Positions 1,244 to 28,677 of a stretch of 64,000 bases of DNA are shown one piece after another; within the stretch, counting starts at the first letter, position 1, and each line of letters begins with the position of its first letter. Source of the DNA: Staphylococcus phage Fi4S2; sequence record PV037056.1; one strand, written 5' to 3'. The notes under the pieces are model-generated. The model worked only from the letters and a program-made list of their open reading frames with translations, did no database searches and was not told the DNA's origin. A program made the position numbers and the translations under genes.

Positions 1244-4200
1244 TAAGAAGACAATCAGGACTTGGAACTACCTTTTCAGAAACAACTTCTGAAGACAATA
1301 AAATGAAGAGCTTGATTTTAGCTAGAATCATAAAAGTATACTATAAGTATCAAACTGTTGAATTAGAGGCATTATCAGGTAAGTTGTCACTAGGTAAAGG
1401 TAACAACACAGAAGGTAGATTTTCAGCTCCATATCCTAAGTCTTTCACAGGATTAACTCCTGAGAATGAAGTATATGGCTCTATACCTGTAATGTCTCCA
1501 GGCATGATAGTGCTTGTTGGTTTTATTAATGATAGCCCTAGTAATCCTATAATCATTAATAGTTATGGGCTAAATGAGCATAATAAGCAACTAGTTAGAA
1601 CACCATTATTAAGTGGTGACATGAGAGATGATAAGAACTATAAACTCAACTCAGCATCTTTTACGCTATCACCTAGTTTAACTTATCAGTTTAAAGATGG
1701 TGAAGGCAATGAAGTTAATACGTGGAATGGTTATACATTTCAATCTATAACTTCTGATGCTAATAACTTACCTGTAGCTACTGACTACATGGATGGTAGT
1801 TATTACATGGATTTATATACTAGTAAGTATGGTGACGATTCTTTAATTGAACCTAGAATTAAGCAAGCTCCTGCGATGTTCTTTAAACACCAAGGAGAAT
1901 ATACATCAGATGGTGAGTTAGATAATCATATATACATGGACTATATAGAACCTGATGGTACACATAGAACTACTTCTATGAATAGAGAAGAGCAATGGAG
2001 AACATCTGTTGAGCAAGGACATAAAGGTGACTGGAGAGTAAGATACCAAGCAGATAGTATCATATTAGATGATGCATTAGACTATATAGAATTTGGCTTA
2101 GATAGTGATAATCAACGGTTTTACATAGAAAACCCAAATCATTCTTTTGAAGTCACAGATGAGGGCATCATTGTCGATGGAAAGCCTCTATTAGCTAACA
2201 TAGATGACAGTATTGAAGAAGCCTTTAAACACCTAGATGAGATAGAAAGTCAAATGGAAGAAGTTCAGAACATACTTGAAGGCCTAGGTGAGAGAAGTTT
2301 AAGAGAACTTATAAATTCTACTAATGAAGCTATAGCTAAAACTGAACAAAATGAAACTAAGATAAGTGCGCTTAACAAGGCTATAAATGAGAACACTAAT
2401 AACATTACAGGTATGATAGAGAAGTATGATAACTTTATGGATACTGTAAGAACCTACATTCAAGATAATGATACTAATATTAACAGTATTAGAGACCGAT
2501 TGAGAGAGGTTGAAAACTCATCTGATTTAGAACCACTCAAAAAAGATTTAGAAAAATATAAATATAAAACATACAGAGACATTAGAGTGGAAGCTGATTT
2601 ACCTAGATACTTTGCTGGTTATGATGCTATACTATCGGGCTCCCAAAATACAAAGTATAACTTGCAAGCATTTGCTATGGATAGTAAATACTACTTCTTA
2701 TTGTTTAAACCTGAAGGTACAGGAGACAAAAGAAATATCTTAGTAGTTTATGATAAGTTTTTAAAAGAAATTAATAAGTATTTCTTTGGTCAAGGAGTAA
2801 TCCAAACGATAGCTATTGATGTTCCTGCAAACACTACTAATCGTTACCTCTATACTAAGCTCGATGACCAAACAATAGTTTCTTATGACTTAACAGCAAT
2901 AGATAGTAAGGATGTCTTGACATTTAATGACATTACTAGTAAAGAGCCTAGAGCATCTTATTCAGTACCTGTTCAGGATACTATACTAAAGGTTAGAGAT
3001 AACTGGATAGTTAAGACAGTAATTGACAGCTTTGGTTATGCTACTTACACGCTTTATGATAAGGATTTCTCTAACCCATCTAAGTTATACAGATTACGTA
3101 ATAATAGTAATGTTGTAGGCTCTATGATGGATGGTGGAAACTTAGCCCAAGTAATTCAAACCCAAAATACAGCAGGAGTACAGATAGTTAATTCTGACAA
3201 TAGTATTCAGGATTACACGTACAGTAACACAGAGTTAAACTCCTTTATTCAAAGTAAGATAGGAGTTTCTACTCCAACAGCTAAACAGGTAGGTGCTTTT
3301 AGTAGTTCTGATGTTTACTTATCTACTATAGTTTACAATGAGGATACAAGCTATGGAAAGACTAAGGGCATTGCGATTATAGAACATAAATCATCTAATA
3401 GGGATTACAAGTTTAGAGAGTTCTCTTTACCTGTAGACCAAAGACTTACAGTAGCCTGTATAGGTACAAAGCTATTTAACACAAATACAAACTCTGAGAT
3501 TAATAGTATAGAGGATTTACTCACTACTATGACAGACTTGAAGATGAGTTCATTTTCACTATATACAAATAATACTAATATAATTGATTTTAATTCATCT
3601 ACAAAAGTACCTACAGATGTTATTGTAACTATATCCATGTTAACGGATAAAACATTCTATGTTACCTATACATTTACTAAAAATAACCAAGAGAACAATT
3701 ACATCATAAAGAATACAAGTTCAGGTTACTCTTACGTAAGTATTGATAATGAACCTGTACTTAATAGCATAGATGTATATGCAATTAAAAATGTAGGTAA
3801 ATCATACGTAATAAATGGTACTAACCTACCTGAAGGAAGTACAGAAGGATTTGTAGAGCTAAGACAAACACCTAATGCAAGTTTGTTACTATTTATTGAT
3901 GCTACATCATTAAACCAATATGGTGCTATAAAAAAAGACACACAATGGGGAGAATGGAAACTATTATCAAAGGAGATTTTTAAACCAAAAGGAGGCGGGT
4001 CGGATAAGTATAAATCAATGACAGAGTTAATGAGTATTGTCCCTGCTGGTACACAATGGGAGATAGTAACTAAAAACCTATACTCTGATACACTAGTAAC
4101 AGCTATACATGGTGGAGGTATAGAGATAGGTACGTCAGAACTAGCAGAAGAAGTAGCAACGGAATCTAACAAGGATTACTTCTCCTTCTTAGGTAAGAAA

Positions 4201-4626
4201 TCATCAAATAACTCTGAATTACATGTTACCTCTACTAATTATGATGAGCCTACATTGTTTACTATGCTTAGACGTTCTTTATATTCCGTAGCAATACATG
4301 GAGCTAGTGGAGATGACAAAGTTATCTATATAGGAGGAGCAGACGCTACAAACAAGGCTATCATGAAATCAGAACTGATTAATGCTGGCTTTGATGCTCA
4401 AGATGCTCCTGATAACCTAGCGGGTCTAGAACCAAATAATATATCTAATCAGACCAAAAGAAAAGGGTGTGTTCAGTTAGAGTTGACTACAGCACTTAGA
4501 AAATCATTCTTTTTAAATGATGACTGGTCTAAAGCTAACAGAAGTAATAGAGATAATTGGACATCTACCTTATTTAACTTAACAACAGCTATAACAACTG
4601 CAATGAGTAAATTTGAAAATGACTAA
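1228..4626 (+). CDS. large tail/baseplate structural protein (1132 aa) with a central coiled-coil segment
   Basis: Long uninterrupted ORF. It sits between the tail lysin and the baseplate genes, as the large tail proteins do in phage K-like genomes. No catalytic motif could be confirmed by eye. Confidence 0.4.
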   Translation: MGANVVRRQSGLGTTFSETTSEDNKMKSLILARIIKVYYKYQTVELEALSGKLSLGKGNNTEGRFSAPYPKSFTGLTPENEVYGSIPVMSPGMIVLVGFINDSPSNPIIINSYGLNEHNKQLVRTPLLSGDMRDDKNYKLNSASFTLSPSLTYQFKDGEGNEVNTWNGYTFQSITSDANNLPVATDYMDGSYYMDLYTSKYGDDSLIEPRIKQAPAMFFKHQGEYTSDGELDNHIYMDYIEPDGTHRTTSMNREEQWRTSVEQGHKGDWRVRYQADSIILDDALDYIEFGLDSDNQRFYIENPNHSFEVTDEGIIVDGKPLLANIDDSIEEAFKHLDEIESQMEEVQNILEGLGERSLRELINSTNEAIAKTEQNETKISALNKAINENTNNITGMIEKYDNFMDTVRTYIQDNDTNINSIRDRLREVENSSDLEPLKKDLEKYKYKTYRDIRVEADLPRYFAGYDAILSGSQNTKYNLQAFAMDSKYYFLLFKPEGTGDKRNILVVYDKFLKEINKYFFGQGVIQTIAIDVPANTTNRYLYTKLDDQTIVSYDLTAIDSKDVLTFNDITSKEPRASYSVPVQDTILKVRDNWIVKTVIDSFGYATYTLYDKDFSNPSKLYRLRNNSNVVGSMMDGGNLAQVIQTQNTAGVQIVNSDNSIQDYTYSNTELNSFIQSKIGVSTPTAKQVGAFSSSDVYLSTIVYNEDTSYGKTKGIAIIEHKSSNRDYKFREFSLPVDQRLTVACIGTKLFNTNTNSEINSIEDLLTTMTDLKMSSFSLYTNNTNIIDFNSSTKVPTDVIVTISMLTDKTFYVTYTFTKNNQENNYIIKNTSSGYSYVSIDNEPVLNSIDVYAIKNVGKSYVINGTNLPEGSTEGFVELRQTPNASLLLFIDATSLNQYGAIKKDTQWGEWKLLSKEIFKPKGGGSDKYKSMTELMSIVPAGTQWEIVTKNLYSDTLVTAIHGGGIEIGTSELAEEVATESNKDYFSFLGKKSSNNSELHVTSTNYDEPTLFTMLRRSLYSVAIHGASGDDKVIYIGGADATNKAIMKSELINAGFDAQDAPDNLAGLEPNNISNQTKRKGCVQLELTTALRKSFFLNDDWSKANRSNRDNWTSTLFNLTTAITTAMSKFEND

Positions 4627-4628
4627 GT

Positions 4629-4657
4629 AGAAGAGGCTAACACCTCTTCTTTTTTGT
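4629..4657 (+). terminator. rho-independent terminator after the 1132-aa tail gene
   Basis: GC-containing hairpin gaagagg/cctcttc followed by a T-run. Confidence 0.5.
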
Positions 4658-4700
4658 TGTATGTTATATTAATTTTGAAGAAGACCACAAGATAAAATAC

Positions 4701-4728
4701 TTGCAATACCTTATAAGTATGGTATAAT
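4701..4728 (+). promoter_or_regulatory. sigma-A-like promoter (TTGCAA-16 bp-TATAAT)
   Basis: Near-consensus -35 and -10 hexamers with correct spacing, upstream of the 4760 ORF. Confidence 0.45.
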
Positions 4729-4759
4729 AAGTGCATAGACTATAGAAAGGAGTTATATT

Positions 4760-5554
4760 ATGCCTCAATCAGACGGTACAAATACACTAAAAAGAATTGC
4801 ATTACACTTTTCTGATGACAATGGTAGTTTTACTAACTCTACTGAAGACATTTATAGATTTGCTGTAAACCCTGAAAATTATAGACATACAATGCCACAA
4901 CGTTCTAATGTTTTAAAAACTAAGTCAAGTATAATAGTAGAAGACTATGGCAAAGACATTGAAACGATTACCTTTTCAGGTACAACAGGCTTTAGAAAGA
5001 TAAAACAAAATGGTAAGGTAATGAATGGTAAACAAAGAATGGATGAGTTAATATCTCTAGTAGACTACTACGCTCAGTCAAGTGGAGGCAGTGGTAATAG
5101 ACCTTCACATTTAAGATTTTATAATCGTACAGACGATGTTAACAAACTAGTGACATTAGCACCTGAAGGATTAACAGTTACGAGAGATAAAGAAAACCCA
5201 TTGATGTATCAGTACGAGATAACATTAGTAGTTTTAGGTTTTGCCTGGGAAGATGGGGACAATGCAAAAACAGACCCTGAGTTTGGTAACGTACAACCTA
5301 GCCCCAGCCAAGATGCTACCAATAAGTTTTTAGACCAAAATGACTATGACTATGGGTATAGAGACCAAAATAATACTGCTATGAATAATGGTGACAATAG
5401 ATTCACTGACCATATCAAAGATACTGATAACAACATACAATCTAATAATACTAGTGGTACAGTAGCTAATCCAAGAGTTAACCTTAGAGGTATGTCGAGT
5501 TCTGTATCAAATATGGCTCAAATTGTAGGCTATGGGAATGGTGGTGTAGGTTAA
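4760..5554 (+). CDS. hypothetical baseplate-region protein (264 aa)
   Basis: ORF with an RBS (aaaggag). Assigned by position in the baseplate module. Confidence 0.4.
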   Translation: MPQSDGTNTLKRIALHFSDDNGSFTNSTEDIYRFAVNPENYRHTMPQRSNVLKTKSSIIVEDYGKDIETITFSGTTGFRKIKQNGKVMNGKQRMDELISLVDYYAQSSGGSGNRPSHLRFYNRTDDVNKLVTLAPEGLTVTRDKENPLMYQYEITLVVLGFAWEDGDNAKTDPEFGNVQPSPSQDATNKFLDQNDYDYGYRDQNNTAMNNGDNRFTDHIKDTDNNIQSNNTSGTVANPRVNLRGMSSSVSNMAQIVGYGNGGVG

Positions 5555-6087
5555 TGGATTATAGAATAAGACAAACAAGTAGTTTACTAAGATTTTTAAA
5601 AACAATTGATGTCTCAGATGATACAAGAGTAGTAGCTAATAGACTAGATGGTGAGCTAACCTTTACTTCTAAGTATTATACACCTAATTTAATACTAAGT
5701 GAGCTAGCAGTAAAAGCTTTACAAGACATAAAAAGTGATGTAGTACCTTATACGGATACTGACATCAATAAAGAGAGTATAGTTAATAGCCTTAGAAAAA
5801 CAGATTTAGCTATAAGAGAGCCTGGTGTTTACCAAATACTGCAAACTATTGTATTAGAAGCTTTTGCATTAATAAACAGTGTTACTGAATCACCTACAGC
5901 CTTAAAGTATGTAACAAAGAAAGACATAGCTCTTACTAGAGATAACCTAAACTATGTATCTGATTATTTAGGTGATTACCCTGATTACATTACTGTTTTG
6001 GATAAGCTAAGGGAGCTAGACATTAGTTTTGGCTACATTGAGAACCAATTAGATTTAATGAAAGTAGGTGTTGTTGATGAGGTATAA
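5554..6087 (+). CDS. hypothetical baseplate-region protein (177 aa)
   Basis: Translationally coupled ORF (ATG overlaps the previous stop). Confidence 0.4.
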   Translation: MDYRIRQTSSLLRFLKTIDVSDDTRVVANRLDGELTFTSKYYTPNLILSELAVKALQDIKSDVVPYTDTDINKESIVNSLRKTDLAIREPGVYQILQTIVLEAFALINSVTESPTALKYVTKKDIALTRDNLNYVSDYLGDYPDYITVLDKLRELDISFGYIENQLDLMKVGVVDEV

Positions 6088-7865: not shown

Positions 7866-10800
7866 TTGGGTAACTTTTTAAAATACATACATCCTCTACT
7901 GAAAAGAAAGAAAAGTGATAAGAATTATGAGGATGTAAACTACGCTATAATAAACGCACTAGACACTGAAATAAGTGACTTAGAGAAAGAAGCGATGGCA
8001 AGTAAAATACAATCCTCATTAAAAACAGCAAAAGGAGAATATCTAGACCTTTGGGGTGAGTGGTTTTACGTTACAAGAAGAGAGAATGAAGAAGATGACT
8101 TGTATAGAGAACGTATTATAAAGTTCTTATTATTAAAGAGAGGAACTAATAATGCTATTATTGAGGCCTTAAGAGACTTTTTAAATGACTATGATTCCTA
8201 CATCAACATATATGAGCCTTTCACAAATATATTCTATACTAATAAGTCTAAACTTGATGGTGAAGACCATCTTATGGGTGACTATTACCGATTTGCTATT
8301 ATCGACATCACATTAGGTCGTAAGTTTCCTGTAGAGATTATAGATGTTATTAATGAGTTCAAACCAGCAGGGGTTAAGTTTTATTTAACTTATGACCATG
8401 CTAGAGATGTCGAAGGTGATGGCATTATAGAGATGCCTCCAGCTAATGTAGAGATAACAGCTAGAACTCATATAAGCACATTAGGTGGCTATGGAGGTTA
8501 TATTAGAGGCCACGTTAATTTAGGAAATCTAACTTATAAATCCATTTTTGACTATGAAGATGATGGAGAGGGTAACAATAACATCTTTAGAACTGATGAC
8601 TCCCTAATCAACAGTTTAGATGTTCTAGGTGGGGAAGCAGGAGCAGGAAGTAAATATACTAATACTGCTATGTTAACATCAAAAGCTTACTACCCTACAC
8701 TTCAAGATACAGCACATACTTTTAGTGAAACAAGTGGTGTTACATTGCTAGACTCAGAGTTTAATAGAGGTACAAAGAAAATAGATAATCTAGTAGGCTC
8801 TTTAAAAACATTAGGAGGTAACAAAGAAAGTAACCTTTATATAGGTCTTGATGTCTATCGTTACTTAAATCTAAATTACCCTAGTACAGTTAAGAATTAC
8901 ACAGATACTTCAGAGCTAAAAAACAAAATTACTAAGGTAGCAAAAGACCCTAAGATAGTTTTTAAAGCTAATGCTCTAGTGTCACCTTCAGAACCCGTAT
9001 CAGCCCATACGTATATATTTAACTTTACTAACAACCAATGGGACTTTTTAGATACAGTAAATCTTGACTTAAATGGTGTTCATAATACCGCAGAGCTAGG
9101 TAACTTGTATGACAACATATCAGATACTGGAACTGTATTCTTGAAGGGTGTGGTAGACGCTACTGAAGAGCCGATACAGATAAATGTAGACTATCTAGAC
9201 CTGTCCTTTAAAGACTATGTAAAAGATTACTATACTATAATGCCTTATGAAGGTTCAGTAGAAGGTTATCATAAGATTGTAAATCTAGCTGTACAAGTTA
9301 ACGCCTATAAGACATATACAGGCTCTAACCCTGAAGTTATGTTAGATTCTTATTACAGACCAACGGGATTTTATAGGATTAAAGGTTTAGGCTCTACTAG
9401 AATATCTCATGTGTTGAAAGATGAAGATTATAATATGGGTATAGAATCTGAAGAGAACAGCTATCACTATTTACCTACAGGGCTTCTTAGTAAAGAATAT
9501 CTTAAACCCTTTACTATTACAGATGACAAAACTTATTTAACTTTGGATAATAATTTCAACTTTGCTGAATACTACACACTTAGCTTTATGCTAGATAATA
9601 GTGAGGACATTAACACCAGTGAGTATAAATTACACTTCTATCAAGAAAGAAAGTCAACAAATACTCAAGAGCTTGTAGCTACTTTTAACTTATCCGATAG
9701 CTCTAAAAGCTCAGAAGAGGTGTTTAGTCAAACTAAGCAATTCCTTAAGTTCCCGTACAAAGAAGCTATTGGTGACGATGACATTAACTTTTATGTTAAA
9801 GCTGAATATACTGGTCAGAATGCACAAGAACCTTTACAGGTTAAAGCATTTGTGTTAAAAAATTCTAGTATAGTTAAGGATGTTCCCTCAGATGCTAGCT
9901 CTATTTCTTATGGAGGTCAGAGTAATCTAAGAGATTACACAATAGAGGATACAGAAAATGGTGTGTACTTAAAATCACCTACTGATGGTATTTTTGACTT
10001 TGCCTTAAGTTTCCCTGATGCTCCTAAGACAGACAAGGAGAAACCCTATTATTACAATGAACTTATTGAAAAAGGACTTACACCGTCACTTTTAATACCG
10101 TACAAGGTTACTGATGGTACTAAAGGTAGTGGCATGGTTAGAGCATACATCAGAGACACTAATACAAGTTCTATTATTTCTAGCTTTTATATAAACAATA
10201 ACAAGGATTCAAGTTCTCCTTATGACTATATAAACATACCATTATCTAAGTTAAGTTCTTCTAGTAGCATTTACATGTCTACAAGTAGTATCACTGGGCT
10301 TAAGATTATAGGTAATATGAAAATAGCATTTTACACAGAAGACAATGCACTAACTTTATCATCAGGAATGTCTTACTTGCCTATAGTATCTAAAGAGTAC
10401 ATTGTTAAAGGTGAGATGACAGTTAGGTTTAAGATGAATAAGAAATATAGTACACAAGAACTTCAGTTGTATTATGGTACGAGTAACTCTCAGGGACTGG
10501 AAAATGTGCCTTACCCATTAGCTAATACCCAACAAGTTACTTCTACCGTTGTAGATGATACTACAAATGAGTATCTGTTTACGGTTAAAATACCTACAGC
10601 ACGTAGAGGTTATAATATAGAAGATGTTTACTCATTGTTAACTGACATGTCTAAACTTGAAGTAGAATCCAAAGATGATACGACAGAAGTTTATAATGAT
10701 TACGATGACACGTATACAATAATTAATTATAGTAACCCTATAGACGTAAGTATACCTATATATAATAGTACTGTATTTAAAGAGTATCCTGTTGTTAATA

Positions 10801-19959: not shown

Positions 19960-19967
19960 AATTTAAG

Positions 19968-19996
19968 TACAGGATATTTCCTGTGCTTTTTTTTTT
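19968..19996 (+). terminator. rho-independent terminator
   Basis: acagga-tatt-tcctgt hairpin followed by 10 T. Confidence 0.55.
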
Positions 19997-19997
19997 G

Positions 19998-20026
19998 TTG
20001 CAAAATAAGTGAAAGTGTGATATACT
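19998..20026 (+). promoter_or_regulatory. sigma-A-like promoter (TTGCAA-17 bp-TATACT)
   Basis: Consensus-like hexamers upstream of the helicase gene. Confidence 0.45.
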
Positions 20027-20057
20027 AGTAAAAGACCATAGAATAGGAGGATTTATA

Positions 20058-22622
20058 GTGAAGATTATTGTAGACATTATAGACAGCAAGATAGAGTTTG
20101 AACCTGAAGATGAGCATTTAAAACCCGCTATTATCAACAGAGCACATACAGATTTAGGTGCTAGAGACCCAAACTTTTTGCATGATAGAAGGTATAAGTT
20201 AGGTATATGGGATGGGATGATAGACTTTTACGATGCAAAAAACCACTCATTCCCTACAGGACTTCTAGAAAAAGTTATGATTATGCTAGGGGACATGCAG
20301 TCACAGTATGGGTTTACATACTCTGTAGAGGACTTCAGACCTGACACATTTTTAGATGTTGATGAGATGGATGAGGAGATAGTTTTAAAGGATGAAGAGT
20401 TAGGCTCCATAACGCTCAGAGACTATCAACACGATGCAGTAAAAGGTATCATAGAACATATGAATGGTATTGTTAACCTAAGCACTAATGCAGGTAAATG
20501 TATCAATAAGAATACAAGAATACTTACAGCTCAAGGTTATAAAACACTGGAGGACATCTTTACAGAACAAGGTATAAGTTTAGATGGTGATGAAGAAGTT
20601 ATACCATTAAAGTATACGCTTATTAATCGTTATGGAAAGAGAGAGCAAACAAGTCATTTTACAAAGAATGGTATTAAGCCTACTAAAGTAATAACTACAC
20701 ACAGAGGAACAACATTGAATACAACCTATAATCATCCATTGTTAGTAGATAGAGAGGGCATACCTGAGTGGGTTAAAGCAGAGGACTTAAAAGCAGGAGA
20801 CAAACTATATGCTAGAGCTGGAGATAATGTATTTGGTACAGATAAAACAGTTAGGTCTGAGAGTGAAGCTTATAGAAGAGGTGCTTTACAAACTGCAACA
20901 ACACCTCTACCAAAGTATATTCATCAAGCCCCAAGAAAAATACAATTAGCATTTCTTACTGGGTTTTTAAATCTAAGAGAAGGTATTGATTTACTAAAAA
21001 CATTACATACTTATAATGAACGTATTGTAATAGAAAGTCCATGTAAAGAGCTTTTAGAGGACTTACAGCTAGTTCTATCTAACCTAGGTATCCTATCTTC
21101 CCTGAAAGATACAGAAAAATCATCTTTTACATATTACGGTTTATTGAACGTGTATGAAGGACAAGAAGAGCTTAACATAGAAACTCAAACCTATTTACAA
21201 GAAGTTGTATCTATAGAAGAAGGGGAAGAGATTCCTACATTTGATGTTAGTATGCCTGAGACAAACTCATTCATAGGACAAGGAATTATAAATCATAATA
21301 CGGAAGTAGCTAGTGGAATCATTCAGCAGTTACTCCCTCAGTTAGAAAGAGGAGAACGTATTGCTTTCTTCACTAATAACTCATCTATCTTTTACCAGTC
21401 AGCTAAACGTATAGGAGATAGATTAGGTATTAAAGTAGGGTTATATGGTGGAGGTAAAAAAGACATCCAACAAGTTACATGTGTAATGTTACCTACGATA
21501 CATGCTGGGTTGACAGACCCTGAAAAAAATGTTAAACTAACTGAGAAAGAAAGACTATTTAAACGTATAGCCAAGGAAGTACTACCTCAGTTTGAATCAG
21601 GGGTAAACCAACGTTATCTACTGAAGCTATTTATTGACCGTTTTGAGCCTAAGACTAAAGTTGACTTAAAGTTTAAGCATGAACTTGAAGAGGTCTTACA
21701 TAGAAGTGGTTCTGATAGTGAAGTATTGATGAACTTAACAAAGTATGCTAAGCTATATAGAGAAACAATACAGAAGAAAAATAATAAAGTATATAAGAAA
21801 AATAAAGAAGTGGTAGACTTCTTAGAGAGTGTTTCTGTTATGATTTGTGATGAAGCACATCATACGTCAGCAGATACTTGGTACTACTCACTCAGACGAT
21901 GCATCAATGCTCAATACAGAGTAGCCCTTACAGGTTCAATAGAAGAGAGCAATGAACTACTTGTAATGAGGATGAAATCGGTATTTGGAGAGATAGTAGC
22001 TAAAGTAAGAAATAAACAAATGATTGAAAGAGGTTTTTCTGCTAAACCTATTATAAAAGTTTTTCCTGTAACTCAACCTAAAGACATATCGGGACTAAAA
22101 GAGTTCCAAGAAATATACAGGAAAGGTATAGTTGAGAATGAGTATAGAAACCTGTTGATGGCTAAACTAACTAAAACATTAAACACACAAGGTAAAACAA
22201 CATTGTTAATAGTAAACCATACAAAACATGGAGAGGCGTTAGTAGAGTTATTAGAGCAACTAGAAATAGACCATAGATTCATTCACGGTCAATTGTCTAC
22301 AGAGTATAGAGAAGAGTCATTACAATTAGTGAGAGACGGGAAACTAAGTGTCCTTATAGCCACATCTATTGTAGATGAGGGTGTAGACATCTCAGCTATT
22401 GACGCTTTAATACTTTGTGCAGGAGGTAAATCTCTACGACAAACCCTTCAGCGTATAGGTAGAACATTAAGAAAGAAAAAAGGTGACAATACCTGCCAAG
22501 TATTTGATTTCACTGATTACACACATGACATTTTACTTTCACACTCTAAGAAGAGAAGAAAAATATATGTAGAAGAAGAGTTTGAGATAGTTGACATACA
22601 GCCAAAAGCAAAACAAGGGTAA
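20058..22622 (+). CDS. SF2 DNA helicase (DEAH) precursor containing an intein; the mature helicase is ~587 aa
   Basis: Walker A is split: STNAGK | C...HN | TEVASG. A DEAH box (CDEAHH) and a helicase C-terminal domain follow. GTG start with an RBS (ataggagga). Confidence 0.7.
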   Translation: MKIIVDIIDSKIEFEPEDEHLKPAIINRAHTDLGARDPNFLHDRRYKLGIWDGMIDFYDAKNHSFPTGLLEKVMIMLGDMQSQYGFTYSVEDFRPDTFLDVDEMDEEIVLKDEELGSITLRDYQHDAVKGIIEHMNGIVNLSTNAGKCINKNTRILTAQGYKTLEDIFTEQGISLDGDEEVIPLKYTLINRYGKREQTSHFTKNGIKPTKVITTHRGTTLNTTYNHPLLVDREGIPEWVKAEDLKAGDKLYARAGDNVFGTDKTVRSESEAYRRGALQTATTPLPKYIHQAPRKIQLAFLTGFLNLREGIDLLKTLHTYNERIVIESPCKELLEDLQLVLSNLGILSSLKDTEKSSFTYYGLLNVYEGQEELNIETQTYLQEVVSIEEGEEIPTFDVSMPETNSFIGQGIINHNTEVASGIIQQLLPQLERGERIAFFTNNSSIFYQSAKRIGDRLGIKVGLYGGGKKDIQQVTCVMLPTIHAGLTDPEKNVKLTEKERLFKRIAKEVLPQFESGVNQRYLLKLFIDRFEPKTKVDLKFKHELEEVLHRSGSDSEVLMNLTKYAKLYRETIQKKNNKVYKKNKEVVDFLESVSVMICDEAHHTSADTWYYSLRRCINAQYRVALTGSIEESNELLVMRMKSVFGEIVAKVRNKQMIERGFSAKPIIKVFPVTQPKDISGLKEFQEIYRKGIVENEYRNLLMAKLTKTLNTQGKTTLLIVNHTKHGEALVELLEQLEIDHRFIHGQLSTEYREESLQLVRDGKLSVLIATSIVDEGVDISAIDALILCAGGKSLRQTLQRIGRTLRKKKGDNTCQVFDFTDYTHDILLSHSKKRRKIYVEEEFEIVDIQPKAKQG
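20499..21299 (+). mobile_element. intein (267 aa) with a LAGLIDADG-type homing endonuclease domain, inserted in the helicase P-loop
   Basis: N-terminal Cys (CINKNTRILTAQG). A block-B TxxH motif (KVITTHRG). LAGLIDADG-like motifs (LAFLTGFLNLREG; LLEDLQLVLSNLGI). C-terminal HN followed by a +1 Thr that restores GK-T of Walker A. Confidence 0.75.
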
Positions 22623-24317: not shown

Positions 24318-25757
24318 ATGAGTAGAAAAATGAAAGAGCTAGTAATTACACGTTCTTTAAAAGACTTAGAATTTGCAAGAGGGGCTTTATTAAAGCTCCC
24401 TGCAACAGTCTTTGAAGATGATAAGTCTTTACAAACTATTTACACAGTTTTAAAGAGACAGTTAATGAGCTCTCAAAATAGACCGAGCCAAGAAGTAATG
24501 ACATTAAAAATTGAAGACCTTTTAACAAAACAGGGTAAAGATGATGAAGTTATAGATACTGCCATATCTACACTTAACTCTTTATATGAAGTAGAGAAGG
24601 ATAAGAAGTTAGAAGATGAATCAATCAATACAGAAGTAGATAACTACGTTAAAGCTGAAATGACTAAGGATGCTATTATTAAAGCTGTTAGAAAAAATGA
24701 ATTAGAAGACGTAGATAAGATAGGCAAACTAGGTGAAGAGATTACAAAGATTGCAGTTCAGAATCTTTCAGGAGGTTCAGGAGACTTTTTAGACTTCTTC
24801 AATGACATAGACAAGAAAAAAGAATTGCTATCTAATATCTATTCTCATAAATATCCAACAGGATTTAAAACTTTAGATGGTATTATTGAAGGTGGATTAT
24901 CTAGAGGAGAAGTTGGTGTTATCTCAGGTATTACAGGTGGTGGTAAATCACTTACTATTACTAACCTTATTGCCAACTATGTCCGTAGTGGCTTGAATGT
25001 ATTGCTTGTATCACTAGAGGAGAACATGGAACGTATTGTATTACGTTCTGAGCAACAGATGTTTGGTATTAAAAAGAGTAGTATCTTAAATACAGACTAC
25101 ACATTAAATGAAGCTTCATATGAAGCTATTCAAAAGCTATACCAACAAAAAGGTAAAACGTTTGGGAACTACTTCATTTCTAAACACAAACCTCAAGAGG
25201 TAAGTCCTTCAAAACTAGAGCAAATAATTGTTAATACAACAGTGAGAGAAGATACAAATATTGATGTAGTCATTATTGACTATCCTGAGCTTATGATTAA
25301 TCCATATAATAATGCTAGTGAGTCAGAAGCTGGTTCTTTAATCTATGAACATATCCGTAAACTATCACAAGAGTATGACTTCTTATGTTGGACTATATCT
25401 CAGGTAAACCGTAATGCATCTCAAAATAGTGAAGTAATAACTAAGTCTCATATTGAGGGTTCTAAACGTAAACTGAACGCAGTAGAGCTTCACTTAACAT
25501 TAAACCAAACATCAGAAGAGTTTGAGGCAGGTTACTTAAGATTTTACTTAGATAAGGTACGTAACAACTCAGGTAGAGTATCTAGTAAAATCATACCTAT
25601 GAGAGTAGAGCCTGAAACTATGACAGTTAGAGATTGCTTACCTGAAGAAATACAAGAGCACTCAGAAGTAATGAACTCTAGAGATAGTCAAGTGTTTAAC
25701 AAACCTAAACAAGAGTCACCTACTTCAAGAGCTAAAAGTTTTGATAATGGATTTTAG
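24318..25757 (+). CDS. DnaB-like replicative helicase (RecA-fold C-terminal domain)
   Basis: GFKTLDGIIEGGLSRGEVGVISGITGGGKS (DnaB H1/Walker A). ...VVIIDYPELM (Walker B-like). WTISQVNRNASQN (DnaB ISQLNR motif). Confidence 0.6.
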   Translation: MSRKMKELVITRSLKDLEFARGALLKLPATVFEDDKSLQTIYTVLKRQLMSSQNRPSQEVMTLKIEDLLTKQGKDDEVIDTAISTLNSLYEVEKDKKLEDESINTEVDNYVKAEMTKDAIIKAVRKNELEDVDKIGKLGEEITKIAVQNLSGGSGDFLDFFNDIDKKKELLSNIYSHKYPTGFKTLDGIIEGGLSRGEVGVISGITGGGKSLTITNLIANYVRSGLNVLLVSLEENMERIVLRSEQQMFGIKKSSILNTDYTLNEASYEAIQKLYQQKGKTFGNYFISKHKPQEVSPSKLEQIIVNTTVREDTNIDVVIIDYPELMINPYNNASESEAGSLIYEHIRKLSQEYDFLCWTISQVNRNASQNSEVITKSHIEGSKRKLNAVELHLTLNQTSEEFEAGYLRFYLDKVRNNSGRVSSKIIPMRVEPETMTVRDCLPEEIQEHSEVMNSRDSQVFNKPKQESPTSRAKSFDNGF

Positions 25758-25768
25758 GAGGAAGATTA

Positions 25769-26350
25769 ATGAAATTTATATTTTTCACAGACAGTCATTT
25801 TCACTTATTCACAGACTTTAGTAAACCTGATGAGTTTTATCGTAATGACAGATTTAGAGAACAGATAGAAACTTTAAATCATGTTTTTACTCTTGCTAGA
25901 GAAAAGGAAGCTACAATTATTTTTGGTGGTGATTTATTTCATAAACGTAATGCTGTAGATACAGTAGTATATAATGAGGTATTTAAGGTATTTGCTAGAA
26001 ATAAAGATGTAGCTGTCTTATTACTCAGAGGCAACCATGATGCTACAACCAATTCAGTGTATACTGACTCAAGTATAGACACGTTTGAATACTTACCTAA
26101 TGTAAGTGTATTTCAATCTTTTGGAACTATAGAGGTAGGTAATGCAAACTTAGTATTTACAGCTTATGGTGATGAGACTGAAGAGATAAAGGACTACATT
26201 GAAGATAACTACAATACAGATAAGGTTAACATCCTTGTAGGACACTTAGGTGTAGAAGGGTCTTTAACAGGTAAAGGTTCACACAGATTAGAAGGAGCTT
26301 TTGGGTACCAAGACCTTTTACCTGATAAGTATGATTTTATTCTTTTAGGG
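25769..26350 (+). CDS. sbcD: Mre11/SbcD-like nuclease, exon 1 (194 aa)
   Basis: Calcineurin-like phosphoesterase motifs DSHFH, GGDLFH, GNHD. The exon ends ...DKYDFILLG immediately before the expected GHxH motif. Confidence 0.75.
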
Positions 26351-26750
26351 TAGATGCCCTGCTTATTCGTAAAGAGTAAGTACCGAGTGTTAAATGCTAT
26401 GAATCCGTAAAGCTAACTAAACTGAAACAGAAGAGGAAACTCTAGATGGAAAAGTTGTGAAAACAGAAAAAATTAGTTAGATGTACTAAGGTTAAATCCT
26501 AAGGTATACACAATCGGTCTATAGCAGGGAAAGACCTAAGTTCAAATGAATAAGGGAGACCCTCAACGACTATTCCGTATAGGTGACGGAAGTAAAACCC
26601 TAAACGACTGAGGGAAGAAAAATACTCCTACCTTAACTAAGGTAGAACAAATAGTCTCCACCCGTACCGAAAGGTAGGGCTATAGATGAACTATAGGATT
26701 ACAAAGTGGTGTTTGTAATCAAAGAATGTTAAATAAATTATAACTTCCTA

Positions 26751-26779
26751 TTGACATTACTTCCCTAACATGTTATAGT
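26751..26779 (+). promoter_or_regulatory. internal sigma-A-like promoter (TTGACA-17 bp-TATAGT) driving tnpB within the intron
   Basis: Perfect -35, 17-bp spacer, near-consensus -10, 22 nt upstream of the tnpB RBS (aaggaggtg). Confidence 0.5.
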
Positions 26780-26801
26780 ACATGTATAAGGAGGTGTAAT
26801 A

Positions 26802-28076
26802 ATGTCAGAAAGTACAACGTACAGAAAAATTAAAATAAGGTTAGTACCAACAAAAGAACAGGAAGAGTTAATGTGGAAGCATGTTCATGCTAGTAGATTT
26901 ATTTACAATTGGGGTCTTGAAAGGTGGTATAGTAATTTAGATAATGGAATAAAGAATACTACAAGTAATAAGTTATCTAAAGAACTAAAAACAGTGAAAG
27001 AAGAAAACCCATGGTTAAAAGAGGTATCTAATAAAACTTTAGTAAAATCATTACAAGTTCTAGAGTTTAATATGAAGAGGTTTTTTAAAAAACAAACTAA
27101 AAGACCTAAATTTAAGAGCTCTAAAAGCAGTATACCTTCTTTTAAAACACGAACAGAAACTAAGTGGGGTAATAAACATTTACCTAACATTGAAGGAGAT
27201 AGGATACGGTTAGAAAAACTAAAATTAGTTAAATTATCTTCTAAGATAACTAAATCTATGAAAGAAAAGAACATAAACCCTGTATTTTATTCTAGTACAA
27301 TCTATTATGATGGTAAATATTGGTATATTTCATTAGCATATAAAGTCGAGAACCAAGACAAAAAAGAACTCACCAATGAAACCATAGGTATAGACTTAGG
27401 AATAAAATCATTAGCTACTTGTTCAAATGGTAAATCTTATAAAAATATTAATAAAAGTTCTAAAGTTAAAAAACTAGAGAAAAGACTAACTAGATTACAA
27501 AGACAACTATCACGTAAGTATGAAATGAATAAAGATAAAATACGAGTAGGACTACTTAATACAGATGGAACACCTAAGATAGATAAGCAAGGTAGACACA
27601 TGTATAAGTATTCTAAAACTAAGAACATTATTAAGTTAGAAAAAGAGATAAAACTCTTACACAGAAAACTTAAAAATATTAGAAATAATCATGTTCATAC
27701 TATGACTAAAGAAATAGTAGAATTATTACCACAAGAAATAGTAATAGAAGATTTAAAAGTAAGTAATATGTTAAAGAATAAACATTTATCTAAACATATA
27801 AGTAAAGCTAATTGGTATGAAATACGTAGACAATTAACTTATAAATGTGAGGATAGAGGAATTCTTCTTACAATAGCAAATACTTATTACCCTTCAAGTC
27901 AAACCTGTAGTCATTGTGGTAATCGTTTAACCAAACAAGACAAACTTAGTCTTAAAGAGAGAACTTACAAATGTAAGAAATGTAATTCTAGTTTAGATAG
28001 GGACTTAAATGCTAGTATTAACTTAATGAACTATAGATACTCCAAATGGTGTCAAAATAATATAATTTCACAATAA
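26802..28076 (+). CDS. tnpB: TnpB (IS200/IS605-family OrfB) RNA-guided nuclease homolog, apparently intact (424 aa)
   Basis: Typical OrfB N-terminus (YRKIKIRLVPTKEQEELMWKHVHASRFIYNWG). RuvC-I GIDLGIKS, RuvC-II VIEDLKVSN. Zn finger CSHCGN...CKKCNSS. RuvC-III DRDLNASINL. Confidence 0.85.
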   Translation: MSESTTYRKIKIRLVPTKEQEELMWKHVHASRFIYNWGLERWYSNLDNGIKNTTSNKLSKELKTVKEENPWLKEVSNKTLVKSLQVLEFNMKRFFKKQTKRPKFKSSKSSIPSFKTRTETKWGNKHLPNIEGDRIRLEKLKLVKLSSKITKSMKEKNINPVFYSSTIYYDGKYWYISLAYKVENQDKKELTNETIGIDLGIKSLATCSNGKSYKNINKSSKVKKLEKRLTRLQRQLSRKYEMNKDKIRVGLLNTDGTPKIDKQGRHMYKYSKTKNIIKLEKEIKLLHRKLKNIRNNHVHTMTKEIVELLPQEIVIEDLKVSNMLKNKHLSKHISKANWYEIRRQLTYKCEDRGILLTIANTYYPSSQTCSHCGNRLTKQDKLSLKERTYKCKKCNSSLDRDLNASINLMNYRYSKWCQNNIISQ

Positions 28077-28233
28077 AAGAAATATATTATATGTAGGATT
28101 CCGTAAATCCGAATTTACGCCTTTGGAGTATCATACAAACCTTAGTAGAGTAATAAGAAGTAATTCTTTACAGAATGAAATACTCAAAAAGGGATACGTT
28201 GAAGAAGGAAGTTATAAATTAATTAACATACGG

Positions 28234-28677
28234 CATTATCATAGAAGACAGTATTTCCAAAACCCAAATCACTTTTATGGTGGTTCTTTAATGCAACAAT
28301 CGTTCTCAGATGAGCAAGAAGCTAATGGTGTTCACTTAATAGATACTGATACTATTACAACGGAATTTATACCTCTAGATACACGTAGGTTTATTACAGT
28401 AAGAGGAGATGATGTTCCTGAAGACCTAGACCAACTTATAGAGTATGGTCACTTCATTAGATTTGTAGGTAGTACTAACCAAGCTAAAGCGATAGAGTTA
28501 GCATCTACAGATGAGACTAATAACATACGAGTAGAGTTACAAAAAGATTATACGGTAGAAAAACGTATAGATAGTGAAGTCACTGACTCACCATTATCTA
28601 TAGCATCAAGCTATTCAGATAAGTACTATCCTGAAGCTAAAAAAGAAATACTAGAATGTCTACAGGAGGTGTTATAG
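28234..28677 (+). CDS. sbcD: Mre11/SbcD-like nuclease, exon 2 (147 aa)
   Basis: Begins HYHRRQYF... and completes the GHxH motif when joined to exon 1. The track ORF start at 28123 (MEYHTNL...) is probably intron 3' tail read-through, not coding. Confidence 0.7.
   Translation, partial: HYHRRQYFQNPNHFYGGSLMQQSFSDEQEANGVHLIDTDTITTEFIPLDTRRFITVRGDDVPEDLDQLIEYGHFIRFVGSTNQAKAIELASTDETNNIRVELQKDYTVEKRIDSEVTDSPLSIASSYSDKYYPEAKKEILECLQEVL

Follow-up and report, generated by a model that had tools for sequence, protein, structure and literature searches.

According to the homing-cycle model (Goddard and Burt; Gogarten and Hilario), an intein invades a site, becomes fixed, undergoes decay of its endonuclease and is then lost. 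The P-loop of ATPases is a well-documented hot-spot for inteins (PMC4760082); those at DnaB site b, MCM site a and RFC-S site a, as well as those of RadA, RecA and VMA, are placed in the Walker A motif of an ATPase of replication, recombination or repair, and their hosts are members of superfamilies 4 and 6 (SF4, SF6), AAA+ or RecA-like proteins. In phages, a Hint domain in the Twort helicase (PMC5526547) and an intein in the Sepunavirus helicase (PMC6597688) have been mentioned. The Twort-like helicase inteins (Twort ORF006, S25-3/S25-4, Twillingate, Terranova, Quidividi) are 418-420 amino acids (aa) long and include both LAGLIDADG motifs with their catalytic acids intact. In this work we analyzed a stretch of 64,000 nucleotides (nt) of Staphylococcus phage Fi4S2 (PV037056.1), referred to as the window, in which the P-loop of a UvsW-like DNA helicase of superfamily 2 (SF2) carries an intein of 267 aa. 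This intein can be likened to the other P-loop inteins by its insertion site, the host being of a different superfamily. It shares with the Twort-like inteins the host protein, the insertion point (GK/T, where the slash marks the junction), Cys1, the TxxH block, the terminal HN and Thr+1, and it is ~50-53% identical to them over the shared parts; in contrast, it is shortened, its endonuclease is decayed and it has Asn in block F. We consider it highly probable that the intein, lodged between Lys147 and the Thr of the P-loop, is spliced out of the helicase, that its endonuclease is disabled, and that it represents a vertically inherited intermediate of decay.

The insert interrupts Walker A of an SF2 helicase and is a genuine class 1 intein of LAGLIDADG ancestry, given that profile hidden Markov models, a clean gap in the homologues, invariant catalytic blocks and the predicted structure all identify it as such. 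A preliminary description of this DNA, made from the letters alone, had placed at 20499-21299 an in-frame insert of 267 aa, CINKN...GIINHN, between ...NLSTNAGK and TEVASGII; the translation is identical, and the junction codons are TGT (Cys1, 20499-20501), AAT (Asn267) and ACG (Thr+1). The hallmarks that it had listed, namely Cys1, a TxxH block B (T76-Y-N-H79), a terminal His-Asn (H266-N267) and a +1 Thr, are all present and invariant in the alignment. The profile search proposed there returned Pfam Intein_splicing (PF14890; 51.7 bits against a cut-off of 35.8, E = 1e-13) and, from NCBIfam, TIGR01445 intein_Nterm (29.5 bits, cut-off 24.5) and TIGR01443 intein_Cterm (16.3 bits, cut-off 15.6), along with weaker matches to the models of intein-containing GyrA, RFC and DnaB. 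Across 44 homologous inteins Cys1, T76, H79, D249, H266 and N267 are invariant, and the block F Asp is present in 45/45 aligned inteins. A class 3 intein was ruled out by Cys1 and by the presence of Asp, not Cys, at the block F position. An assembly artefact was ruled out as well, since an independent genome in GenBank and two Logan assemblies contain the 267-aa form too.

The AlphaFold2 model of the intein, built on the homologue alignment, has a mean predicted local distance difference test (pLDDT) of 92.9 and a predicted TM-score (pTM) of 0.89. When it was compared with the PDB using Foldseek, all 50 matches with E <=1e-3 were inteins (best E = 1.7e-13); TliVMA and PhoVMA (E ~1e-13) ranked first, followed by GyrA, PI-PfuI and PI-SceI. 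For the identity of the insert this fold comparison was decisive, rather than the phmmer search against the PDB sequences, which gave marginal matches only (E ~1e-3). TliVMA/PhoVMA (7qss/7qst/7qsu), PI-PfuI (1dq3) and PI-SceI (1vde) combine the HINT fold with an insertion of LAGLIDADG type (Foldseek E from 1e-13 to 1e-6), but their identity to the window intein is 9-18%, their host proteins are others and their endonucleases have two complete half-domains. The TM-scores of 0.6-0.7 relative to the query (TMq) against 0.4-0.55 relative to the target (TMt) are due to the parts that the window intein lacks.

Intein-free relatives, with which a comparison had been suggested, show the expected clean gap exactly at GK/T, as in Kayvirus IME-SA1 and Listeria LMSP-25. 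In the alignments of 9 and 58 sequences, 12 such homologues, which span Kayvirus, Listeria A511/LMSP-25, Enterococcus and Bacillus phages, read continuously ...ATNGGK/TEIASG..., and the insertion point in the aligned homologues is located between K and T. The 9 sequences of the smaller alignment show no variation at T143 and N144; among the 58 helicase homologues, T143, G146 and K147 are conserved in at least 90% and T415 (Thr+1) is invariant. It had also been proposed that removal of the insert restores a GxxxxGKT P-loop. The motif is indeed restored, but as STNAGKT, which has one residue fewer than the textbook [AG]xxxxGK[ST]; the homologues have ATNGGKT, and this is the form of motif I proper to the UvsW-like family. 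The predicted masses, 97.6 kDa for the precursor, 67.4 kDa for the helicase and 30.2 kDa for the intein, agree with the ~67 + ~30 kDa estimated beforehand. A second, distinct insertion point in helicase motif I was observed in PSU6 (OP913464, 2569-5580) and P0044 (81 member sequences), where the intein lies 3 residues upstream within the same P-loop (ATN/C...QHN/SGKT) and is followed by a +1 Ser in place of Gly.

The protein that hosts the intein is a UvsW-like SF2 helicase and not the replicative helicase, because its exteins carry the Helicase_C (67.4 bits) and ResIII (35.7 bits) domains, the best PDB relative of the spliced extein is T4 UvsW (2oca, E = 6e-19), and the corresponding gene of phage vB_SsapH-Golestan-100 is labelled uvsW. 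The UvsW_N profile reached 16.9 bits on this helicase, under its cut-off of 25.3. The open reading frame (20058-22622) begins with a GTG start codon and is the only long one that spans the region. These domains and the alignments bear out the earlier placement of the insert in Walker A (motif I) of an SF2 helicase; the term 'replication helicase' used with it does not hold, as no DnaB_C match was found in the intein-bearing helicase and the DnaB_C protein, a DnaB-like replicative helicase, is encoded by a separate gene at 24318-25757. In some Kayvirus annotations the UvsW-like helicase is named 'DNA helicase A'.

The window is ~95% identical to its closest relative in GenBank, the Staphylococcus saprophyticus phage Golestan-100 (Twortvirinae), whose insert has the same 267 aa with 97.4% amino-acid identity, in a gene labelled 'uvsW DNA helicase' with no intein annotated. 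A tblastn search with the insert gave 120 phage records in which this gene carries a homologous intein (E down to 3e-40). Homologous inteins of 418-438 aa occupy the same site in Twort, S25-3/S25-4, Twillingate, Terranova, Quidividi and in Listeria, Enterococcus and Bacillus phages. The element is annotated as an intein in S25-3/S25-4 ('putative helicase with intein'), PSU6 (note 'helicase with intein') and the Bacillus BSP phages, and in the records of the Sepunavirus phages Twillingate, Terranova and Quidividi the product is an 'intein-containing DNA helicase precursor', those of Twillingate and Quidividi also having a mat_peptide feature labelled 'intein'; the element is not annotated in Twort ORF006, Listeria LMTA-148 and the Enterococcus phages. 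The suspicion that the window intein could be a new allele outside any standard annotation is thus contradicted by homologous same-site inteins, several of them annotated and those of Twort and Sepunavirus mentioned in papers: it is a shortened, endonuclease-degenerate new member of a known family of phage helicase inteins.

The relatives were recovered by searching a large protein collection with the whole precursor; a search with the intein only against a database of 5.8 billion proteins gave just 3 partial matches, since it depends on shared 5-mers. Helicases longer than 1,270 aa, probably with two inteins, appeared in the search results and were left out of the alignment. The aligned sequences form a size series that includes the empty site (0-aa insert, 12 sequences), mini-inteins of 155-180 aa (5 sequences: P0065, P0100, P0116, P0117 and P0123), intermediates of 250-305 aa (the window, P0004, which is 99% identical to it, P0005, 89% identical, P0055, P0058 and P0069) and full-length inteins of 418-438 aa (34 sequences). 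The mini-inteins, which are metagenomic, share the site and the splicing blocks and stand at the end-point of endonuclease loss; they have lost the whole endonuclease domain, whereas the window intein keeps a folded half-domain of ~110 aa. The four states of the homing-cycle model (empty, full-length, decayed and mini) are all found at this helicase site. In intein-only alignments the deletion boundaries are not alike among the short forms, so the endonuclease has decayed independently several times. The 267-aa form is rare, being present in 1/50,697 phage records and in 2 clusters of the protein collection.

Some other variants of this gene were observed. The Bacillus phage orthologues of 1,270-1,390 aa (P0089, which is BSP18 with 1391 aa, P0090, P0093, and BSP9, MG000860 2395-6552) match the exteins in three pieces, and from this pattern they probably carry two inteins in the helicase. 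P0069 (895 aa), from a bacterial genome in a record named Collinsella aerofaciens and presumably from a prophage, has an independently shortened intein of 305 aa at GK/T with the motif 2 acids intact. The annotation of Silviavirus remus (MW546076, 480-2475) divides the helicase into two coding sequences; the frame breaks right after ...QATNAGK, the same GK/T point as the intein, and a non-coding gap of 226 nt follows. This gap is probably a small intron, because a split or intron-containing helicase has been mentioned in papers for Romulus and Remus; the Rfam search of the split Remus helicase gave no match, group I introns included.

The preliminary description had pointed out two LAGLIDADG-like motifs and implied an intact endonuclease. 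Both motifs are there, but as remnants only: EAYRRGAL is truncated, and LAFLTGFLNLRE is devoid of its acidic residues. The catalytic position of motif 1, which is D/E in 34/34 full-length relatives, is gone. Motif 2 reads FLTGFLNLRE against FLSGYLECES in the relatives, and its two acids, Glu in 34/34 and 33/34 of the full-length relatives, are replaced by N and R in the window and likewise in P0004 and P0005. Compared with the 34 full-length relatives, ~150 aa of the endonuclease domain are missing in two internal deletions, one of ~70 aa that corresponds to the first alpha/beta half-domain and another of ~90 aa that corresponds to the C-terminal helical (DNA-binding) region; the N-terminal splicing subdomain and the second half-domain are retained. 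Pfam LAGLIDADG_3 (PF14528) matches with 22.8 bits against a cut-off of 22.5 and covers only positions 22-64 of the 82 of the profile. In the AlphaFold2 model the remnant folds into one half-domain, made up of three helices (121-130, 146-161 and 183-195) and three strands (176-180, 200-208 and 211-218), most of it with pLDDT >90. An active monomeric LAGLIDADG enzyme requires two half-domains and two acidic residues. The window intein does not have two LAGLIDADG helices that each end in a catalytic Asp/Glu, and the model shows one alpha/beta half-domain in place of the two that form the DNA-binding saddle. Because both features were looked for and found to be absent, the endonuclease is very probably dead.

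The selective constraint was estimated as the omega ratio, mainly from the comparison with Golestan-100, in which the counts are small (108 nucleotide differences). Omega was 0.012 for the N-extein (18 synonymous and 1 non-synonymous changes), 0.021 for the C-extein (36 and 3), 0.048 for the whole intein (40 and 8) and 0.079 for the endonuclease remnant (16 and 5). Against the P0005 contig (L010) the synonymous rate (dS) is saturated and has no defined value for the N-terminal splicing domain, which leaves the proportions of non-synonymous and synonymous differences (pN, pS) as the only usable measure: pS is saturated at about 0.6-0.8, and pN is 0.03-0.05 for the exteins, 0.144 for the N-terminal splicing domain, 0.164 for the remnant and 0.039 for the C-terminal splicing domain. 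The intein evolves 3-5x faster than its host, yet it is constrained, and the remnant is about as constrained as the splicing domain. The reading frame is preserved on either side of the intein in three diverged lineages. The helicase appears to be functional on both sides of the insert, which would make splicing a requirement. We infer that the window intein still splices, since its splicing blocks are intact but for the block F His and both the intein and the exteins are under strong purifying selection. Golestan-100 is an isolated and propagated phage with the same 267-aa allele, and its viability, together with the purifying selection on both exteins, suggests that the intein would splice autocatalytically and ligate the exteins.

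In the pathway that we propose, the helicase gene would be transcribed from its own promoter and translated as the 97.6-kDa precursor. Splicing would start with an N-S acyl shift at Cys1, helped by Thr76 and His79 of block B, and would proceed through trans-esterification to Thr+1, cyclisation of Asn267 with the help of His266, and an O-N shift, to give the intein in free form (30.2 kDa) and the 67.4-kDa helicase, whose P-loop would now be continuous. The ancestor would be an intein of ~420 aa with a LAGLIDADG endonuclease at the same site, such as those of Twort, Sepunavirus and the Listeria, Enterococcus and Bacillus myophages. The endonuclease would have been disabled in the lineage of the window, Golestan-100, P0004 and P0005 through the ~70- and ~90-aa internal deletions, the loss of the catalytic Asp of motif 1 and the change from E/E to N/R in motif 2. 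Within the homing cycle, the window intein represents a step that follows the full-length inteins and precedes the mini-inteins of 155-180 aa; most probably it is immobile on its own and vertically inherited.

Three observations weigh against this reading. The block F His, found in 41/45 aligned inteins, is replaced by Asn256 in the window, as it is in P0004, P0005 and P0073, and splicing could consequently be slow or conditional. The block F histidine assists Asn cyclisation and C-terminal cleavage, and it is not an essential nucleophile. A Glu is located one position past the usual catalytic site in motif 2 (LNLRE), and the inactivity of the nuclease is deduced solely from the sequence. Finally, the homing-cycle model predicts neutral decay of the endonuclease, and the leftover half-domain is still under clear purifying selection (omega ~0.08-0.1), which is unexpected for pure junk unless its foldability is needed for splicing. 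The simplest reading of this constraint is that maturation of the precursor depends on the continued folding of any domain embedded in it, given that a misfolded one would block maturation of the helicase.

The same constraint could instead indicate that the remnant has been retained for a function, either as a single-motif module similar to I-CreI that binds or cuts DNA as a dimer, or as a DNA-binding or regulatory module that makes splicing, and with it the activity of the UvsW helicase, conditional in the course of infection. Besides its omega of 0.079 and its pN of 0.164 against a saturated pS of ~0.70, the core PLPKYIHQAP..IQLAFLTGFLNLREGIDLLKTLHTY.ERIVIESPCKELLE is almost unchanged, the modelled helix-strand half-domain is well folded, and it has been argued that P-loop inteins act as post-translational sensors (PMC4760082). 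We regard such a retained function as unlikely: neither motif has its catalytic acids and the other half-domain has been lost, the pN of the remnant is not below the 0.144 of the N-terminal splicing domain and is 3-5x that of the exteins, folding for helicase maturation would by itself account for the constraint, and mini-inteins without an endonuclease domain exist at the same site, so the remnant is in principle dispensable for splicing. A more specific version, in which selection keeps both the half-LAGLIDADG remnant of ~110 aa and the block F Asn, so that the intein would be a DNA-sensing or conditional splicing switch that times the activation of the UvsW-like helicase in the infected cell, seems to us quite improbable; if it were true, this would be a domesticated intein rather than a decaying parasite.

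At the other extreme, the insert could be a relic that no longer splices, in which case the helicase gene would stay interrupted for good and the phage would live with a non-functional (pseudo)gene. In some phages, such as T4, helicases of the UvsW type have an accessory role, and the replacement of the block F His by Asn would fit such a relic. However, purifying selection on both exteins is very strong (omega 0.01-0.04) in three lineages with saturated synonymous divergence, which would be pointless if the P-loop stayed split; the primary splicing residues C1, T76, H79, D249, H266, N267 and T+1 are all intact, and P0073, which is a full-length relative, likewise has Asn in block F. A relic is accordingly very improbable. 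That the segment is not an intein at all, but an ordinary lineage-specific domain of the helicase or a Hint domain of another kind, is effectively refuted by the profiles, the alignments and Foldseek, and we give it hardly any credence. The Pfam PT-HINT (pretoxin Hint) profile does match, with 30.8 bits against a cut-off of 27.7, but it is outscored by Intein_splicing; this lower score, the +1 nucleophile and the location of the insert within a catalytic motif rule out a pretoxin Hint or a bacterial intein-like (BIL) domain. An ordinary helicase domain is ruled out by the clean gap within an invariant catalytic motif and by the lack of the insert in most of ~790 phage homologues; moreover, the segment has Cys1 and the terminal HN, and its structural neighbours are all inteins.

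The present understanding of these elements is not changed by the window intein, whose main value lies in annotation and in the natural series of decay to which it belongs. The annotation of the Golestan-100 gene should be changed to that of an intein-containing precursor; the clustering of core genes and the phylogenies of Herelleviridae are distorted when inteins go unrecognised (PMC7409376). The site offers an unusually complete natural series that can be used to study the loss of the endonuclease while splicing is preserved, and it may also provide compact phage inteins able to function with a +1 Thr in the GK/T context. The coordinates of the features are given in Table 1.

Table 1. Features of the intein-containing helicase gene and its expression signals in the window.
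Feature	Position	Strand	Basis or remarks
Terminator-like hairpin and T-run, ending the upstream tail-fibre gene	19965..19996	+	10-pair stem; 1 site found vs 0.1 expected from shuffles
Sigma-70-like promoter of the helicase gene (TTGCAA, 17-nt spacer, TG-extended TATACT)	19998..20026	+	consensus scan only
Ribosome-binding site AGGAGG of the helicase gene	20045-20050	+	
Precursor open reading frame, intein-containing UvsW-like SF2 DNA helicase, 854 aa, 97.6 kDa	20058..22622	+	Helicase_C, ResIII, T4 UvsW relative
N-extein, 147 aa, ending in ...NLSTNAGK, the first part of Walker A/motif I	20058..20498	+	translation, alignments
Intein, 267 aa, 30.2 kDa, class 1, Cys1 ... His266-Asn267	20499..21299	+	profile models, alignment, AlphaFold2/Foldseek
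N-terminal splicing (HINT) subdomain, residues 1-118; block A (Cys1), block B T76-Y-N-H79 (20724-20735)	20499..20852	+	TIGR01445; pLDDT 96-98
Degenerate LAGLIDADG homing-endonuclease remnant, residues 119-230	20853..21188	+	alignments, partial LAGLIDADG_3, AlphaFold2
LAGLIDADG motif 1 (block C) remnant, EAYRRGAL	20865..20888	+	ends before the catalytic Asp; ~70-aa deletion next
LAGLIDADG motif 2 (block E) remnant, LAFLTGFLNLRE	20946..20981	+	acidic positions are Asn, Arg instead of Glu, Glu
C-terminal splicing subdomain, residues 231-267	21189..21299	+	TIGR01443
Block F, PTFDVSMPETNSF	21234-21272	+	Asp249 present; Asn for His at residue 256 (21264-21266)
Block G, GIINHN	21282-21299	+	
C-extein, 440 aa and stop, starting at Thr+1 (ACG, 21300-21302), completing ...GK/T of Walker A	21300..22622	+	translation

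The expression signals of the helicase gene are conserved in two related genomes, Golestan-100 and the P0005 contig. In Golestan-100 (3888-5888) a block of ~2 kb with four genes on the minus strand ('topoisomerase' and three hypotheticals) separates the tail-fibre terminator from the helicase promoter; it is present neither in the window, where the junction is 19996/19997, nor in the P0005 contig. The helicase of the window is 2 residues longer than that of Golestan-100, as Gln853 corresponds to a stop codon there (22614-22622 vs 8557-8565).

Downstream of the helicase, an insertion of 1.88 kb (26351-28228), not found in Golestan-100, splits the gene of 'recombination exonuclease A' (Metallophos, SbcD/Mre11-like; 25769-28677). 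It contains a 424-aa IS605 OrfB/TnpB protein with a Cas12f1-like TNB domain (26802-28076), preceded by ~450 nt of non-coding sequence and directly followed by a RAGATH-18 RNA (28120-28210, 65.8 bits). Rfam gave no group I intron match in this insertion, which may be a TnpB-carrying intron (IStron-like) or an insertion sequence. Another RNA motif, DUF3800-I, was matched at 61680-61818 (+) with 45.5 bits against a gathering score of 44.2 (E = 0.001).

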